UHGV virus genome: UHGV-1624697
Origin: a virus
DNA: 10,330 nt
Direction: 5' to 3' (one strand)
The position numbers and the translations under genes were made by a program. Position 1 is the stretch's first letter. Every line of letters begins with the position of its first letter. The notes beneath the pieces are model-generated. The model did not search any database and was not told where the DNA came from. It saw nothing but the letters and a program-made list of their open reading frames with translations. Shown here piece after piece: positions 1 through 7,956 of the stretch.

Positions 1-30
1 CGTGGGCTCGGAGATGTGTATAAGAGACAG
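1..30 (+). other. Synthetic sequence: Illumina Nextera read-2 adapter tail ending in the 19-bp Tn5 mosaic end (AGATGTGTATAAGAGACAG at 12-30)
   Basis: Positions 1-30 (CGTGGGCTCGGAGATGTGTATAAGAGACAG) match the 3' 30 nt of the Nextera transposase read-2 adapter as I recall it. It sits at the extreme window edge with no IS50/Tn5 interior following. Confidence 0.9.
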
Positions 31-605
31 TGGCAGATGCGAAATTATTTATTGGCGGTACGCCGAACCCGAACTACCCGAACTGTAATGGCGCGTATGA
101 GTTTGCTGAACCTCATGCGCGTCGTATCGCGTTCGAATATGCGAACGGGTATTTCACGCTGGGCTGGCCGTTGCAACCATCCGAAAAGAATTACCAGTTT
201 CAGGAACTGATGAATGCAGAAACCGGATTGAACGACCACATCATGATGTATGTTGTACCGGAACAGCATTTACTGACTGGTGTTCTGTTTGAAGTACTGG
301 AAGGTGATGCGCGTATGGCAGGTGCAGCATTACGTCCAAGTGGCATGTTGTATGACCATACGACGAAGCAATACACACCTGATACGGTGCTGGATAAGTT
401 GTTTACCAATACGGCAATTACTGCGCCATTTGAGAAGTATGGGCATCTGGCAGAGCCGTATTATGTGCCGAAGGGTAAAACCCTTGTGTTGACGCTGCGG
501 GTAAACGCGGTGCCGACTGATAAGGATGTGAAGCTGTATACCACAACCGCGAAGGCACAATTGGTAGCTAAGGTTCAGGGCTTCGACGTCCCGACCGAAG
601 TATAA
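30..605 (+). CDS. 5'-truncated CDS, hypothetical structural protein (possibly a capsid-type protein; function not recognised)
   Basis: Open frame from the adapter junction to TAA at 603-605. The track's GTG start at 30 lies in adapter sequence and the in-frame codon before it is a stop inside the adapter, so the real N-terminus is missing. Capsid guess rests only on position at the head of a virion-like operon and the downstream hairpin. Confidence 0.65.
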   Translation: MADAKLFIGGTPNPNYPNCNGAYEFAEPHARRIAFEYANGYFTLGWPLQPSEKNYQFQELMNAETGLNDHIMMYVVPEQHLLTGVLFEVLEGDARMAGAALRPSGMLYDHTTKQYTPDTVLDKLFTNTAITAPFEKYGHLAEPYYVPKGKTLVLTLRVNAVPTDKDVKLYTTTAKAQLVAKVQGFDVPTEV

Positions 606-611
606 GCGTCC

Positions 612-651
612 CGGCGGGTGGCGGCCTTATCCCCGCCGCTGCCTGCCATTT
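612..651 (+). terminator. GC-rich hairpin (7-bp all-GC stem CGGCGGG / CCCGCCG, 13-nt loop) with a distal TTTT; possible attenuator or RNA stability element
   Basis: Inverted repeat 612-618 / 632-638 read directly from the sequence, in the only real intergenic gap of the window (606-663). The T-tract (648-651) is 9 nt beyond the stem, so this is not a canonical intrinsic terminator. Confidence 0.3.
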
Positions 652-663
652 TCGGAGCATATT

Positions 664-879
664 ATGAAAAAGATTGGTTTGAACGGTGATGCCACGAAAA
701 CGCCTAAAGGTAAGCCATCCACTAAACTGAAAGCAGGTAAGCTGGCGCATGGTGGTAAAGGCCGTGATGCATCTGCGATTACGAAGCTGAAAGCCGGTAA
801 GCTGGGGTCCACATCCAAAGGTCGTGGTCCAGAGGCCATTACTAAACTTCGTGCTCCTAAAGGTAAGGTAGGAATCTGA
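664..879 (+). CDS. Small lysine-rich basic protein (71 aa) made of ~20-aa tandem repeats (TKLKAGKL...); possible DNA-binding, internal or decoration protein
   Basis: ATG 664 preceded by GGAG at 653-656; stop TGA 877-879. Protein is about 18% Lys plus Gly-rich, with in-frame repeat units at 721-780, 781-840 and a partial unit at 841-876. Confidence 0.6.
   Translation: MKKIGLNGDATKTPKGKPSTKLKAGKLAHGGKGRDASAITKLKAGKLGSTSKGRGPEAITKLRAPKGKVGI
721..876 (+). repeat. In-frame tandem repeat, ~60-nt unit, about 2.6 copies (a degenerate extra partial unit may lie at about 694-720)
   Basis: Unit 1 (721-780) encodes TKLKAGKLAHGGKGRDASAI, unit 2 (781-840) encodes TKLKAGKLGSTSKGRGPEAI, unit 3 (841-876) encodes TKLRAPKGKVGI. 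Units are diverged at the nucleotide level but clearly related. Confidence 0.75.
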
Positions 880-880
880 T

Positions 881-1504
881 ATGGTTACAGCAGTTACACA
901 TGACGAAGCGGATATCCGTAATGAAGGTATCCTGGCAGAGCGTCAGGCTGAACTGGATACCCTGGCGACGAAGATGCCGAAGCCAATTCCAGGCCGTCCT
1001 CCATATCTGATGGAGAAAGCAACCGGGATTATTCATCCGTTCTCTGATGGACTGGCACAGCGTTCTGACCTTGTGGTGGCATGTTATAACCTGCAAGGGT
1101 CCATGAACCCCGCTGATGCAAATCCTGATTATGATCCGCAGGGTATTACCATCGCCGAAGAACGCCAGCGTCGTCTGCGTGATTTACCGCCGGGGAATGT
1201 GGCGGAGATGAAGGCGTCACTGTCTGACGAGATTGCTGCTATTCGCGCGAAAATGCTGGAAGAGATTGAACTGGAACGCCAGGCAATGCGTGATGATATG
1301 GCTGTTGAGTACGAGTCATTTAAAAAAGAACTGGCGGCGATGCGTGGCGATGTTACAACGGCGAAGGCAGCAAAGAAAAAAGATAAGAGCAAGGCATCTG
1401 AGAAAGCAGTATCAGAACCGGAGACACCAGTTACTGATGCAGCGATTACCGGAACCGGGGAAACCTTTGACACAGCACTGGATAACGCGTTGAAGGATAG
1501 CTGA
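881..1504 (+). CDS. Hypothetical acidic protein (207 aa) with helical/coiled-coil-like central region and Lys-rich segment; possible assembly/scaffold-like or internal virion protein
   Basis: ATG 881 one nt after the upstream stop, with AGGTAGGA upstream; stop TGA 1502-1504. Composition Glu/Asp/Ala/Arg/Lys-rich with heptad-like stretch EIAAIRAKMLEEIELERQAMRDD. Function is inference. Confidence 0.7.
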   Translation: MVTAVTHDEADIRNEGILAERQAELDTLATKMPKPIPGRPPYLMEKATGIIHPFSDGLAQRSDLVVACYNLQGSMNPADANPDYDPQGITIAEERQRRLRDLPPGNVAEMKASLSDEIAAIRAKMLEEIELERQAMRDDMAVEYESFKKELAAMRGDVTTAKAAKKKDKSKASEKAVSEPETPVTDAAITGTGETFDTALDNALKDS

Positions 1505-2196
1505 TGATTACACAGGCACTGGTATTAAGTATATCCGGTGACCTGAATGACAATGAAGACGGCTACCACAATCAGACGTGGAGCGAGCAGCAAATCCGGG
1601 AGTGGGTCGCAGAAGGGGTTAACCTGGTATTCGACAAACGCCCGGATTTGTTTATGGAGAAAAAGGTTATTCCTGTGACTCCATGCAGCGTCATTCAGGA
1701 CACATGCGATTGCGGCGCTATCCGTCGCGTGCTTGGGCACGCCACGAAGGATGGCCGGTTATTGTCGGTAATGCGCAAACAGGGACTGGAGTCCAGCCTC
1801 CAGTGGCGTGGCACGTCGTGTCGTCGGGCAACGGGTAAGTACAAGCCAACCAGTTATGCACTGGATGCGATGACGGATGCATTGTATGTGTGGCCGGAAA
1901 TGCCACCCCATGAAGAGGCGTATATTCTGGTTGAGTGCGCAGTGCGCCCTGATGCGGACAGTATTCAGAGTGAAGTCGACGACGCATATGTGACTGCGGT
2001 TAAGCAGTGGGTGTTATGGCGTGCCAGAAGTATTGATGCGGAAGTCTCGCCAGCGGCTGGGAATGCTGCACAGATGCACTATAAAGCGTTCTTCGACGTG
2101 CTGGGCGTGGCGGAGAAAGCGACGGTTGTATGGCATAGGAGCGAGAAGGATGCCAGTGAACCAAAGGGGTGGCGTAATGCAAACGGTAGTATTTGA
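1504..2196 (+). CDS. Hypothetical protein (230 aa), virion/morphogenesis operon member
   Basis: ATG 1504 overlaps the upstream stop (TGATG), with AAGGA 7 nt upstream; stop TGA 2194-2196. No motif recognised. Confidence 0.7.
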   Translation: MITQALVLSISGDLNDNEDGYHNQTWSEQQIREWVAEGVNLVFDKRPDLFMEKKVIPVTPCSVIQDTCDCGAIRRVLGHATKDGRLLSVMRKQGLESSLQWRGTSCRRATGKYKPTSYALDAMTDALYVWPEMPPHEEAYILVECAVRPDADSIQSEVDDAYVTAVKQWVLWRARSIDAEVSPAAGNAAQMHYKAFFDVLGVAEKATVVWHRSEKDASEPKGWRNANGSI

Positions 2197-2815
2197 AGCA
2201 TATCCGAAGGTGCCGCTTGATGCGTTCCTGCCGGAGCTGTCTCTGGAGATACCGGAGTTGTCAGATGATATTCTGGCACATTATGTCCGTAATGCCGCGA
2301 TTGAGTTTGCGGAACGGTCACTTGCACTACAACGGGAGATTACGATATGCCTACAGTCATGTGTGCCGGATTACATTCTGGAAGCGCCGGACTGTATGCG
2401 TATCGTGTCACTGCATAAGGTGAAGAAAAACGGCGACCGTGCTTATGCGGATTGCGCAGGCTTCTGTCAGTTTGATGACCTGCATGTGGTCTGGAAGCAG
2501 CCGAACGAGCTATGGGTGAAGCCTGTACCCGTTGAGCCGCAGGATATCACTGTGATTGTGTCGGTGGCACCACATCATGACGCGTGCGAACTGGATGAGA
2601 TATTACTGACGCGCTACAAAGAAGCAGTCCTGGCTGGCGCGCGTGCACAACTGTATGGGTTACAAAGACGTCCGTGGACGAGCCTGGTATCGGCTACAGC
2701 GCAGCGAAAAGAGTTCGATCGACGGATTGCCGCAGCGGGAACTGACAGGTTGTTACAGGGCCGCACAGGACGCGTACGGATGCAGACGGTTTTTAACGGG
2801 AGACGGACACGATGA
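2177..2815 (+). CDS. Hypothetical protein (212 aa)
   Basis: Preferred start ATG 2177 (MQTVVFEAYP...) has AAAGGGG 7 nt upstream and overlaps the previous gene by 20 nt. The track's 2021 start would overlap the upstream gene by 176 nt and lacks an RBS. Stop TGA 2813-2815. Confidence 0.7.
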   Translation: MQTVVFEAYPKVPLDAFLPELSLEIPELSDDILAHYVRNAAIEFAERSLALQREITICLQSCVPDYILEAPDCMRIVSLHKVKKNGDRAYADCAGFCQFDDLHVVWKQPNELWVKPVPVEPQDITVIVSVAPHHDACELDEILLTRYKEAVLAGARAQLYGLQRRPWTSLVSATAQRKEFDRRIAAAGTDRLLQGRTGRVRMQTVFNGRRTR

Positions 2816-4083
2816 ATAAATGCCGCAAGACACCGAAGAATGCGCGATGTGCACCTGAGCCTGTGGAGGCTGTGCCACCGCTATGTGACCCGTTCAGTGT
2901 GTGTCTGTCGTTCGGACGTACGCTGTCGTACGATGGCGCGTGCGTAAGGCTGAACGGACAACCTGTTATCCCGGATGGCTGGTACGGCGAGGTGCATGTT
3001 GTCAACGGTTGTATCGTTGATGCGCGGGAAGCCCCGGTGCCGCTGTATACCCCGCCGCCGTGTGCCCCGGCAGCGACTCCATGTGGCGAGGGTGGCGGTG
3101 AAGGCGGCGTTACGTTGTCACCTGATGCAGCTAACCTGAGTCGGCTTATCGGTAATCAACTGATGACGAAGTTGTATCTGGGGCAGAATGAGGGCGTCAC
3201 TGTCACGGGTGATGGCACGCAGAATAACCCGCTAACAATTCGTCTAGTCGCCGGAGATGGCGACGGTATTTTCATGACGTCTGGTTCGCCGGATGCACTG
3301 ACTATTTCGGGTAGTGGTGAACAGGCAGACCCATTTATCCTGAAACTGACTAACAGTCCGTTAGGTGCAGGGACGTTCGGGGCACTGGAACTGGACAGTC
3401 TTGGCAGAGTTGTCGGGTATAATGAGGATGCCGGGGGTGACGCCCTGCGGCAGCTTATCGATGGTAACGGTACTAAGGGTGTCACTGTCGGGCCGGGTGT
3501 TGGCCGTATAGACCTGGAAGAAGTGGAGGGCGTTAAGGGTAGTTACACAATGGGTGGCTACTCGTTATCTGTGGATGATACCGGACGTGTGGAGGGTGTG
3601 AAGCGCGGCATCACACTGACTGCTGGCACATACACGCTGGGTAATTACAGAGTGACGATTAATGCCTATGGGTCCATCACTAAGCTGGAGAAGGTTACTG
3701 TTCCGGTAGAGCCGAATGTGTTTGTCGCGCAATACGCAGCAGGAGAGCCAAGTCAGGCTGCTGTGATGAGTTTCACCACGGAAGTACCTGGTCGGCTGCA
3801 TATTGAGTATATCGGGTATCTCGGAACGGCCACCGCACAGACACCGGGACTGGCAGAGAATGTTACAGGAACAGCTATCGCAGTGGACGGGAGTGATGTG
3901 CCGCGTGTACTGACCACGCTGATGCCGTCGGGAACGCCGGGAACGATGGTCAGCACCGGAGTACGTGGTATCACACCAGGCATTATCCCGGCAGGGCCGC
4001 ATACCGTTGCGGTGCGTGGACCGGAGATTATGGGGCAACATGCCGCAATTCTTAAGTGTACGGTGGTCGGGGTCGGCACATGA
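2812..4083 (+). CDS. Hypothetical virion protein (423 aa): Cys-rich N-terminus (8 Cys in the first ~91 aa) followed by a Gly/Thr/Val-rich beta-rich region; candidate fibre/spike or receptor-binding protein
   Basis: ATG 2812 overlaps the upstream stop (ATGA); stop TGA 4081-4083. Composition and repeated G-x-G/GDG stretches resemble fibre/spike proteins; this is inference, not homology. Confidence 0.75.
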   Translation: MNKCRKTPKNARCAPEPVEAVPPLCDPFSVCLSFGRTLSYDGACVRLNGQPVIPDGWYGEVHVVNGCIVDAREAPVPLYTPPPCAPAATPCGEGGGEGGVTLSPDAANLSRLIGNQLMTKLYLGQNEGVTVTGDGTQNNPLTIRLVAGDGDGIFMTSGSPDALTISGSGEQADPFILKLTNSPLGAGTFGALELDSLGRVVGYNEDAGGDALRQLIDGNGTKGVTVGPGVGRIDLEEVEGVKGSYTMGGYSLSVDDTGRVEGVKRGITLTAGTYTLGNYRVTINAYGSITKLEKVTVPVEPNVFVAQYAAGEPSQAAVMSFTTEVPGRLHIEYIGYLGTATAQTPGLAENVTGTAIAVDGSDVPRVLTTLMPSGTPGTMVSTGVRGITPGIIPAGPHTVAVRGPEIMGQHAAILKCTVVGVGT

Positions 4084-5702
4084 TACTGAAAGGGTTTAAG
4101 GGCATATCACCACGTACGCCGGAGCATATGCTTGGCGAAGGTATGGCGACGGTGGCCCGTGATGTGAATTTGCAGCATGGGACGCTTCGGCCGTGGCGGG
4201 AGCCGCGCTTTGTCACGCAGCTACCGGACACAACACTGACGGTTGAAGCGTATGGTTGTTGTTATTTCGCGTGGGATAGTTGCGTCTCTGTCGCACGATG
4301 GCTGCCGGATGTGCCACGGTTGTACCTGACAGGACGTTCGCCATATCCGGAAGTGGCTGCCATTGGTAAAGACTGTACACTGGACTATGCCAGACTTGGC
4401 GTGCCAGCGCCAGATACCACACCGCTGGTCGCATACATTACGGTACCGGATAAGAATATTGAGACGGCATTCAGGACGTATGTGTTCACGTATGTGAACT
4501 GGTTGTCGGAAGAGAGTGCGCCCAGTTATCCTGGTACAGAACTGGCGGTTAATGACGGGCAGTCTGTGACGGTGTCTGGCTGGGAGGCGCAGCCTGCGGA
4601 ATACCGGGTGCAGAAGGTCCGTATCTACCGGAGGACGACGGGGTTGCGGTCCGGTGCCGAGGAAGAGCAGAATATCATCACGGAATACCTGCTGGTTGAC
4701 GAGATTGATATCACGCAGAAGACCTATGTGGATACCCGTAAGGATATGGACCTGGGCTGGCAGTTACCGACACGTGAGGTCCGGGAGCCTCCTGCGGGGC
4801 TACGGGGGATTCTGGCAATTGACGGTACGTCCGTACTGGCAGGTTTTGTCGGGAACCGTCTGTTGTTCACGAAGAACGGACAGCCGTGGAACTGGCCGCT
4901 GGCGCTTGAGATGACGCTGGATGACAACATCGTTCATATTGCGCAGGATGACGGTAACCTGTTTGTATCCACCACGGGGCGGTCATATGTGGTGGACGCG
5001 TCACTGGTCTGCGATGAGCGCCCGTGTCGTTCCGTGGTACAGGCGGATTATCCGATGCCGGACATAGGATGCGGCTATGCGCATTCCGCAATTATGACGC
5101 CGTTCGGTATGGTATATGCCAGCACCGATGGTCTGGTACTGCTGAACCAGTCGCAGCCTACCCGGCTTCTGACAGAAGGTGTTCTTGCCGCTGATGACTG
5201 GATTAAGCTGCGACCGGAAACCACACGACTGGCATACTATAAGGGTTATCTGTTTTGCGTGACAGATGCAGTGTCGTTTATGTTATTGCTGGACACGCAG
5301 TCATACAGTGTTGCGGCACAGGTTGCTGCAATGAGCACGTTCTCGGATACGCCAGTGGATATGGTGCTTAGTGATTCCGGTGAATTACTGATGCTGGATG
5401 ACGAGGGCAAACTACACCAGTGGAATGCCGGGGATAAACTACGACCATATCTGTGGGTCAGCGGGGTTATCATGACAGGCTTTCAGAGCTGGTTACCTGT
5501 GGCACAGATAGGTGTGGATGGCACGGTTACATACACGATTAAGTCGGGGCCGTATAAAGTGTATTCGCGTCCTGTCGCGCACAACCGTCCGTTCCGCACA
5601 CGGCGATTAATGCGCAATACAGAACACCGCATTATCCTGGAAGGCACGGGCGAGGTACGCTGGTTGCGGCTGGGTGCGACGATGCAGGAAGCGGTTAAGT
5701 GA
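4080..5702 (+). CDS. Hypothetical large virion protein (540 aa)
   Basis: Preferred start ATG 4080 overlaps the upstream stop (ATGA, MILKGFKG...); the track's 4056 start is an upstream extension. Stop TGA 5700-5702. Longest ORF in the window; no motif recognised. Confidence 0.75.
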   Translation: MILKGFKGISPRTPEHMLGEGMATVARDVNLQHGTLRPWREPRFVTQLPDTTLTVEAYGCCYFAWDSCVSVARWLPDVPRLYLTGRSPYPEVAAIGKDCTLDYARLGVPAPDTTPLVAYITVPDKNIETAFRTYVFTYVNWLSEESAPSYPGTELAVNDGQSVTVSGWEAQPAEYRVQKVRIYRRTTGLRSGAEEEQNIITEYLLVDEIDITQKTYVDTRKDMDLGWQLPTREVREPPAGLRGILAIDGTSVLAGFVGNRLLFTKNGQPWNWPLALEMTLDDNIVHIAQDDGNLFVSTTGRSYVVDASLVCDERPCRSVVQADYPMPDIGCGYAHSAIMTPFGMVYASTDGLVLLNQSQPTRLLTEGVLAADDWIKLRPETTRLAYYKGYLFCVTDAVSFMLLLDTQSYSVAAQVAAMSTFSDTPVDMVLSDSGELLMLDDEGKLHQWNAGDKLRPYLWVSGVIMTGFQSWLPVAQIGVDGTVTYTIKSGPYKVYSRPVAHNRPFRTRRLMRNTEHRIILEGTGEVRWLRLGATMQEAVK

Positions 5703-5706
5703 GGGG

Positions 5707-6162
5707 ATGATGGCAAGTTGTAAGATTATGCAGTATCCGAAGACTGCGGATGAGATGGAGCGGTTTTTCACGAAAGTGATTGGTCCGTTACTGGTGCGGC
5801 ACTGGTCGGAGGAAGACCAGCGCACCGGGCAGCCACACGGTTTGGATGTTCCGGCGTTCCTTGCAGCATGGGAGCAGCGGGGTGTTATGGTTATTATGGC
5901 GTTTGAAGGCGACACGCCTGTGGGCTTTATGTTCGTTTACGTGTTCCGTCCGTTGTTTCTGGCGGGTACAGTAATGCAGGTTGAGCGCTGGCACGCAGAG
6001 CATGATGGCGTGGATAAGGAGATGTTTGACTATCTGTCTGCGATAGCGCCAGCGATGGGCATTAACCACATTCATGCGATAGCCTGTGACGCGCGCCCTG
6101 TACCGGAGGGCATTGAGACAGATGCCGCAGACAGTTATCAGATGGTGAAACTGGTGGTGTGA
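5707..6162 (+). CDS. Hypothetical protein (151 aa)
   Basis: Preferred start ATG 5707 (or 5710), immediately after the upstream stop, with AAGTGAGGGG upstream; the track's 5674 start overlaps the previous gene. Stop TGA 6160-6162. No motif recognised. Confidence 0.6.
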   Translation: MMASCKIMQYPKTADEMERFFTKVIGPLLVRHWSEEDQRTGQPHGLDVPAFLAAWEQRGVMVIMAFEGDTPVGFMFVYVFRPLFLAGTVMQVERWHAEHDGVDKEMFDYLSAIAPAMGINHIHAIACDARPVPEGIETDAADSYQMVKLVV

Positions 6163-6163
6163 T

Positions 6164-6979
6164 ATGGCAGACGAAGAAGAACTCGCACCGGAAGGTGAAG
6201 AAGGCGCAGAGGGCGAAGAAGAGGTTGCGGCAAGCGAGCCGGGAAAAGGTGTGACTGATGACGGCCTCACATGGTCTGCGCGCATTGCGCAGATAGCTGC
6301 TATTGCCGTGGCGGTCATTAACACTAAGGCCGCCATTGATATCGCTAAAAAGCAGGAGAAGATGGCGAAGAAGTACCTGCAAATGGCGAAGGAGCGGCAG
6401 CAGTATTACTACGACGTCTATGTGCCTTGCGAGAATACAGAGATTCAGGAAGCCTGTAGTGCTGAACTGTATGAGATGCACAAGGATGTACAGGTCGGTC
6501 GTGCGAAGGCATCGGTGCGGCATGAACTGACCGGGAAGACGGAACGTGAGTTGCAGTGTATCAGCCGTTACTGTACAGGTAAGCGCGCTGCAATTGTCCG
6601 TGACCGTGAAGTGGAAGAGGCTACGGCGCTGGCGTTGTCTGCGAACTTTGCACGCAGGTATGAAGAGAAGATTAAGGATGCCCGTGACGATACCCGCTGG
6701 GCACGACGGGCAGAAGCCCTGAATCGCGGTCGTGACATTATGGCACGGGCACAGACGTTCAGTGGTTTCGCTATGGGTATGTTCGGGCGTCTCGGGGAGC
6801 AGGCAGCGAATGCCGCAGCGGGGGCAATGGGGTATCTCGGATATTCAATGGAGCGTCGGGAAATGCAGCCACGTGAGCCGTTGAAACGTCCGCAGCGTAT
6901 GGGTATCTCGTATCCGTTACCGTCGCCGGAACTGGAGGTGATACCGCCGAAACCGCAACCTGTTAAAGTTCTTGGCTAA
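6164..6979 (+). CDS. Hypothetical protein (271 aa), paralog A of a tandem pair; highly acidic Glu-rich N-terminus, amphipathic hydrophobic segment, conserved PCE...EACSA and NFARRYEE...RDD.RW.RR...LNRGR blocks
   Basis: ATG 6164 one nt after the upstream stop; stop TAA 6977-6979. By-eye alignment with the next ORF shows several colinear conserved blocks. Confidence 0.8.
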   Translation: MADEEELAPEGEEGAEGEEEVAASEPGKGVTDDGLTWSARIAQIAAIAVAVINTKAAIDIAKKQEKMAKKYLQMAKERQQYYYDVYVPCENTEIQEACSAELYEMHKDVQVGRAKASVRHELTGKTERELQCISRYCTGKRAAIVRDREVEEATALALSANFARRYEEKIKDARDDTRWARRAEALNRGRDIMARAQTFSGFAMGMFGRLGEQAANAAAGAMGYLGYSMERREMQPREPLKRPQRMGISYPLPSPELEVIPPKPQPVKVLG

Positions 6980-6993
6980 GGGAGCGCGACATT

Positions 6994-7953
6994 ATGGCCG
7001 CATGTGCTATGGCGATGGGTAACTGGGATACCGGGATGGTGAAGTCTCAGGAAGTGAAAACGGAATCCATTGAAAAGATTGAGAACTTCCTGGGTATGTC
7101 GAAGAAGAACGGTGGCGAGGATGGCTTCTGGCCCGAGCCGCAGGTCACTGATACCGGGGTAAAAAGTAATGCCAAATGGGCGCGACTTGCGGCAGTTGCT
7201 GTTGCCACGTTTAACACGCTGGCGATGATTGATATTGCCGAAAAACAGCTTGGCATTGCGGAAGACTATTACAAGATGGCACGCCGGGACTGGGACCGTT
7301 TCAGGGAAATCTTCGAACCCTGCGAGCGAAAGGAAGTTGCGGAAGCGTGCAGCGCGCCACTGTATGACCCGAAACATGACCAGCAGGCGGCAGATTATAT
7401 GAACGAGGTTGACCGCACGTTTGGCATGGCAGAACGACGCATTCATGACCTGTACGGACGGTATGGCATATGTCCTGACCCGTCGCTCAATCGTGATGTG
7501 GCGCTGGCGCGGTCACAGGTGGCGGGTGATTCCGGTAACTTCGCATACCGCTATGAAGAGGGGCGTCAGATTGCGCGTGATGATGTTCGCTGGAATCGTC
7601 GACAGCAGGTGCTGAACCGTGGGCGAAACATCCCGACAGATGCTGTCCGGTATGCAGAGGCAGCAGCGGATGCATTTAACAATCAGGGCAAGATGTTAGG
7701 TAATGCCGCACAGGGTGCGATGAAGGCGTTGGGGTATTTTTCAACACGTAATGAGACACGGTATCCGCAGGGGCGGCGTGACCGCCGGAACAGCCCGTAT
7801 CTGGTCGGGCAGCCAGAGAATGGCGTGTTTGGTTTTATTAGTTCTTCACCTGCATATATCGGCGGTGGCGGGGGGATGGAGTCGGTCTGGTATACAGGGC
7901 ATGATTCCATCGGTAGTAATATCGGGTCGCAGAATCCGGGTACGGGGGTGTGA
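6994..7953 (+). CDS. Hypothetical protein (319 aa), paralog B of the tandem pair, with a Gly/Ser-rich C-terminal tail
   Basis: ATG 6994 with AAGGGAG 8 nt upstream; stop TGA 7951-7953. Shares VTD.G, AA.AVA..NT.A.IDIA.KQ, PCE..E..EACSA.LY, NFAYRYEE...ARDDVRW.RR...LNRGR and GNAA.GAM..LGY blocks with the preceding ORF. Confidence 0.8.
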   Translation: MAACAMAMGNWDTGMVKSQEVKTESIEKIENFLGMSKKNGGEDGFWPEPQVTDTGVKSNAKWARLAAVAVATFNTLAMIDIAEKQLGIAEDYYKMARRDWDRFREIFEPCERKEVAEACSAPLYDPKHDQQAADYMNEVDRTFGMAERRIHDLYGRYGICPDPSLNRDVALARSQVAGDSGNFAYRYEEGRQIARDDVRWNRRQQVLNRGRNIPTDAVRYAEAAADAFNNQGKMLGNAAQGAMKALGYFSTRNETRYPQGRRDRRNSPYLVGQPENGVFGFISSSPAYIGGGGGMESVWYTGHDSIGSNIGSQNPGTGV

Positions 7954-7956
7954 TAA

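Follow-up and report, generated by a model that had tools for sequence, protein, structure and literature searches.

The synthetic 19-bp mosaic end (ME) of Tn5, AGATGTGTATAAGAGACAG, is the hyperactive in vitro substitute for the wild-type OE and IE ends (PMC4248319). It forms the 3′ part of the 34-nt Nextera Read-2/B adapter Tn5ME-B (Illumina FC-121-1031), which is given as 5′-GTCTCGTGGGCTCGGAGATGTGTATAAGAGACAG-3′ along with Tn5MErev, CTGTCTCTTATACACATCT, by Picelli et al. (2014, PMC4248319). The same 34-mer is named the Nextera adaptor R arm elsewhere (PMC6265951) and occurs in 3,533 papers of the literature collection searched.

Here, we compare these sequences with the left edge of the window, by which we mean the whole stretch of 10,330 nucleotides analysed, and the window with related loci from other assemblies. 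Positions 1–30 of the window are almost certainly library-preparation DNA, namely a remnant of the Nextera-type Tn5ME-B adapter.

The adapter remnant at positions 1–30

The window begins with CGTGGGCTCGGAGATGTGTATAAGAGACAG at positions 1–30, and genomic TGGCAGATGCG... adjoins it directly at base 31. These 30 bases are identical (30/30) to bases 5–34 of the 34-nt Tn5ME-B oligo. An adapter screen, which the preliminary description had proposed, was run with both window strands against seven adapter and transposon-end sequences and placed Tn5ME-B at 1–30. The Read-1/A adapter agrees with the same bases at 20/30, through the common mosaic end alone, and the TruSeq adapters stay at noise level. The preliminary description had named positions 1–30 as synthetic Nextera/Tn5 ME adapter, and both its identification and its coordinates proved exact.

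Two parts make up the remnant on the + strand. The outer one at 1–11, CGTGGGCTCGG, is the last 11 nt of the 15-nt Illumina B (Read-2) tail, as fixed by the match of 1–30 to oligo bases 5–34. The inner one at 12–30 is the 19-bp synthetic hyperactive ME, exact over its length; its 3′ ...CAG borders directly on genomic sequence. When up to 3 mismatches are allowed, neither strand of the window holds a second ME match, and 0.01 matches are expected by chance (200 shuffles). The identity of 12–30 is 19/19 to ME versus 16/19 to the wild-type OE and 15/19 to the IE.

The adapter runs on the + strand from window base 1, which is assumed to be the contig end, with the ME 3′ ...CAG facing inward. The likeness to the oligo therefore comprises the whole ME and 30/30 bases, with the 3′ CAG joined to target DNA as in a transferred strand. 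The difference lies at the outer edge, where GTCT (oligo bases 1–4) is absent and the window begins inside the adapter. The window thus has 30 of the adapter's 34 bases, and the index and P7 sequences beyond them are missing.

The same 30-mer was sought in IMG/VR and lies in at least 120 contig stretches, with 124 copies among the matches listed. All but one of the listed copies (123/124) are within 46 nt of a stretch end, and the contig ranges make these ends true contig ends in 118 of the 120 listed stretches. The listed copies are on the + strand at left ends and on the − strand at right ends, so they point inward as in the window. One counterpart is IMGVR_UViG_3300045988_044373, with the adapter at its bases 1–30 in the same orientation and at the same extreme-end position. 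GTCT precedes the 30-mer in 118 of the 124 listed copies, and the median listed copy has 17–18 further bases outside it. Most listed copies hence keep GTCT and outer bases, whereas the window ends within the adapter.

Because the listed copies cluster by dataset, the adapter retention is a property of particular assemblies, which lends indirect support to the suggestion in the preliminary description that the assembly was probably untrimmed and that further contig ends may be affected. Indeed, 74 of the 120 listed stretches are from one metagenome dataset, 3300045988, and three further datasets give 20. Some of the IMG/VR contigs (L015 and L076) carry the adapter at both ends, which could mimic terminal inverted repeats. 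The sole internal copy among those listed is at 3701–3730 of a stretch from IMGVR_UViG_3300010234_000504, at ~68.56 kb of a viral contig of 190,684 bp; it may be the point at which two sequences became fused into a chimera through the adapter.

The junction and the first gene

The related loci number 12. Ten are contigs of 50–62 kb (NCBI, ENA and Logan), found by an exact-protein look-up with the 230-aa SU10-adaptor-like protein encoded at window 1504–2196. An exact look-up with a strain-specific 247-aa protein returned six contigs of 50–200 kb and added one contig to the set; in this one of the six, which was displayed, the junction site is internal. The twelfth is a circular record in PLSDB.

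In megablast of the window against the ten contigs, every alignment begins at window base 31. The contig L004 (ENA ERZ27297158 k119_57256, 62,529 bp) is 100.000% identical over 10,300 bases, window 31–10330, and the nine others show ~97–98% identity where they align. Upstream of the junction, 12/12 relatives have the 30 bases GTTGGTTATTGGGCCTTCGGAGATTAATCA and read ...GGAGATTAATCA directly before TGGCAG.... These upstream bases agree with the window at 8/30, a chance level, versus 29–30/30 for window 31–60. The adapter/genome junction, which is the Tn5 strand-transfer site, is therefore at 30/31: G30 belongs to the adapter and T31 is the first genuine base, as the 12 relatives have A at the base equivalent to 30 and identity sets in at 31.

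The relatives run on upstream. Each fetched locus has more than 8.5 kb before the junction, and the L004 contig has ~17 kb. None of the 11 related contigs ends at the junction, each having at least 7 kb of further contig sequence beyond the fetched locus. The upstream neighbour is a gene for a 315-aa major head protein (phrog_267, E = 5.7e-17), whose TAA stop precedes the next gene's ATG by 2 nt, and the junction sits within a co-directional head-gene operon. Since the relatives continue upstream with the major head protein gene, the left edge is no genome terminus; judging from these sequences, a terminus there can be excluded for practical purposes. A 40-nt pattern across the junction has no match in IMG/VR, the JGI metagenomes or the GTDB genomes.

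These results bear out two earlier statements, that the left boundary is not biological and that no terminal-repeat or genome-end inference should be drawn from it, as the relatives pass through the site without an end and the deposited record is circular. The other end, which was also to be inspected, carries no adapter; the window is genuine to its last base and stops inside a gene. An internal partial adapter match near 9093 (21/34) was dismissed, since that region is 100% identical to the independent contig.

The adapter and the true upstream sequence have in common an 8-mer, TCGGAGAT, at window 8–15 and at 8513–8520 of the L004 locus, with GGGC just before it. Because of these two, MAFFT aligns a portion of the adapter with genomic sequence. 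Mispriming by an index-PCR primer or a microhomology join through this 8-mer was considered and rejected: its distances to the junction differ (15 nt versus 6 nt), a mispriming product would be without ME, and ~2% of the shuffled or real 60-nt controls reach such sharing. From this sequence comparison, the shared 8-mer is judged coincidental.

The first ORF at 30–605 (+) is a 191-aa virion-module gene (phrog_34200). Its GTG at 30–32 is chimeric, as G is the adapter's last base and TG is genomic, and an in-frame TAA stop at 21–23 is supplied by the adapter. The true start codon, present in 12/12 relatives, is an ATG whose A corresponds to window base 30; it was read directly in two of them (L132 and L004). 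Both the gene caller on the relatives and the NCBI annotation of CP061838.1 begin the 191-aa gene at this base, the annotated CDS being UIU63854.1. The translated ORF is identical at 191/191 residues to UIU63854.1 of the E. coli plasmid pSTEC648_2. The relatives also have a Shine–Dalgarno GGAG 7 nt upstream of the ATG; pSTEC648_2 accordingly differs from the window in having ATG in place of GTG and a GGAG ribosome-binding site in place of adapter.

The preliminary description held that the GTG start at 30 is an artefact. This stands for the codon, whose G comes from the adapter, but fails for the spurious or truncated ORF that it implied, as ATG is there in 12 relatives and the product is identical throughout. 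The ORF is full length and its product correct, with the start codon's first base and the ribosome-binding site alone lost. Tn5 cut after the first base of the ATG and the adapter ends in G, so the ORF finder still recovers the whole 191-aa product. Start codons span ~0.4% of positions in a 60.5-kb genome with 79 genes, and the Tn5 cut was made inside one by coincidence. Another ORF, of 64 aa at 16–210 (+), is spurious; it starts at a GTG on adapter bases 16–18 and overlaps the real gene in another frame.

Route to the contig edge and its alternatives

In the window, the transferred strand of the Tn5ME-B transposome (...AGATGTGTATAAGAGACAG-3′) is joined to genomic T31, and this joined geometry is that of tagmentation as described (PMC4248319). 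In a Nextera-type tagmentation, a Tn5 transposase dimer loaded with Tn5ME-B linked the ME 3′ ...CAG to the 5′ end of the phage-plasmid DNA at T31. Illumina sequencing primers bind to the adapter, and synthesis from them proceeds away from it. Because of this direction, a read acquires adapter solely by running through an insert shorter than itself.

The fragment bearing this end would accordingly be a short one: we infer that it was shorter than the read length and that Read 1 passed the genomic insert into the adapter reverse complement, CTGTCTCTTATACACATCTCCGAGCCCACG..., which is the reverse complement of window 1–30. Past the junction, the read-through would proceed in the order of ...CCGAGCCCACGAGAC, the i7 index and ATCTCGTATGCCGTCTTCTGCTTG. 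Adapter trimming of the reads was probably absent or incomplete. The read-through may then have formed a dead-end branch of the assembly graph, kept by the assembler as the only extension at a contig break and leaving an inward adapter tip. Low coverage or strain variation may have caused this break. The loss of GTCT points to partial trimming or a read-length limit.

Other origins can be considered for a mosaic end beside a gene. An engineered ME transposon of the EZ-Tn5 or Tn-seq type might have been physically inserted into the element, the contig then stopping within it. Transposons of this kind have the 19-bp ME as their terminal sequence (PMC4248319), and the window displays one end alone, leaving room outside it for a second end and for the 9-bp target duplication of TGGCAGATG that this insertion entails. 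The 11 bases outside the ME, however, are the Illumina B sequencing-primer tail rather than a transposon interior, the 12 other copies of the element have no insertion at the site, and the extreme-edge, inward position is the signature of a library artefact. Such an insertion is thus very improbable. A natural Tn5/IS50 end, which would put a real mobile element beside the gene, has the smallest probability among the alternatives and is close to negligible. The natural OE and IE are likewise 19-bp transposase-binding ends, from which the ME derives and which it resembles, yet they match window 12–30 imperfectly (16/19 and 15/19) and the synthetic hybrid ME perfectly (19/19). Moreover, Illumina rather than IS50 sequence lies outside the ME, and the relatives have no IS at the site. 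The preliminary description had named a real Tn5 insertion as the alternative to an adapter, and the ME identity and the Illumina B tail exclude it.

The two remaining alternatives accept the adapter but change what it adjoins. It could be the 5′ overhang of a locus-specific PCR primer in an amplicon protocol, as the same 34-mer is in wide use as a primer overhang and the junction adjoins a gene start, a plausible primer site. A gene-specific primer would, however, begin at ATG and not at TG, and a contiguous 10.3 kb identical to shotgun assemblies is no amplicon product, so this origin is as improbable as the engineered insertion. Its practical consequence would be equal, since the edge would still be synthetic and non-biological. 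Or the adapter could merely adjoin a genuine phage genome end, a cos, pac or DTR terminus, where coverage discontinuities arise and contigs can break. The site is instead internal to a co-directional operon, with the major head protein gene on one side and the next virion gene on the other; the deposited record of the element is a circle of 60,552 bp, and 0/11 related contigs end there. In addition, a Tn5 target must be flanked by duplex DNA on either side, so the ME junction marks an internal site. A genuine end here is slightly less probable still than the primer overhang, although not as remote as the natural Tn5/IS50 end. Tagmentation followed by read-through would account for the edge far better than any of them.

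The underlying element and what the edge means

From position 31 to 10330 (+), the window is genuine: by its complete identity to L004 and its PHROG hits, it is part of a phage-plasmid-like E. coli element of ~60.5 kb and carries virion-module genes, each of them on the + strand. The one complete record is the E. coli STEC648 plasmid pSTEC648_2 (CP061838.1), a circle of 60,552 bp, to which window 31–4000 is 98.6% identical in DNA. This plasmid also encodes ParB, RelE/ParE-HigA (a HigB/HigA addiction module), ArdA, a DUF927 protein, a DEAD-box helicase, holins and lysozyme. Judged by these predicted products, its gene set is phage-plasmid-like.

The virion module in the window includes the SU10-type adaptor of 230 aa (1504–2196, +; PF24175), structural proteins of phrog_399 and phrog_437, a 541-aa internal virion protein (phrog_511, E = 1.9e-90) and a lysozyme-like protein. 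Two adjacent genes on the + strand, at 6164–6979 and 6994–7953, are paralogous; both are phrog_37635, share 39% identity over 232 aa (E = 3e-43) and show weak similarity to virion or DNA-ejection proteins. They are a tandem duplication within the virion module. At the right end, 9803–10330 (+) encodes the N-terminus of a protein of 2,311–2,320 aa that runs on past the window, with an LPD38 hit and a faint YkuD hit. It is a giant polyvalent virion protein and probably an ejected one. As the window ends inside this gene, the right edge is no biological boundary either.

Positions 8593–9108 are hypervariable relative to the relatives, which are otherwise 97–98% identical, and the megablast alignments break there in four of them (L002, L003, L005 and L007). 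A tandem repeat, (ACTGGT)x4.3 at 8892–8917, encodes a Thr-Gly run in the 247-aa protein. The gene calls differ for the next gene, giving either 238 aa with a 29-nt overlap or 228 aa.

The element is present in many enterobacterial assemblies, and the index of the assembly collection lists its 230-aa SU10-adaptor-like protein in 155 blocks. Near and distant searches of the window DNA against 50,697 deposited phage records found no match, nor did a search of the complete RefSeq E. coli genomes, PLSDB being the only one of these DNA databases with a match. The 541-aa protein, the one virion protein compared with those of deposited phages, has a best match of 28% identity, and peptide patterns found no relatives of it in the GTDB representatives or IMG/VR. 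Pfam gave no match for seven virion proteins, and no papers were found on STEC648 or CP061838. The element is probably a phage-plasmid lineage with too little description so far. More strongly, the window may come from a lineage of circular ~60.5-kb E. coli phage-plasmids that is essentially undescribed and combines ParB, HigB/HigA, ArdA and a DUF927 replication protein with a podovirus-like virion module that includes the SU10-type adaptor and the ~2,311-aa LPD38 protein; this latter reading we put forward tentatively and hold at somewhat below even chances.

The adapter remnant itself is an artefact without biological novelty. Untrimmed adapter at an end can fake a genome terminus and distort tests of terminal repeats or circularity. 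It can also seed spurious ORFs, as at 16–210, change a start codon, as from ATG to GTG, and create false shared sequence between unrelated contigs. Its retention is common in public viral collections, in view of the 120 or more IMG/VR stretches with one 30-mer, mostly from a few datasets; therefore, adapters should be masked before termini are inferred or contig ends are clustered. For this window, positions 1–30 should be masked, and the first CDS should stay as a complete gene, annotated with ATG as its true start. The window is damaged only minimally, since its first gene is whole and all from base 31 is genuine.
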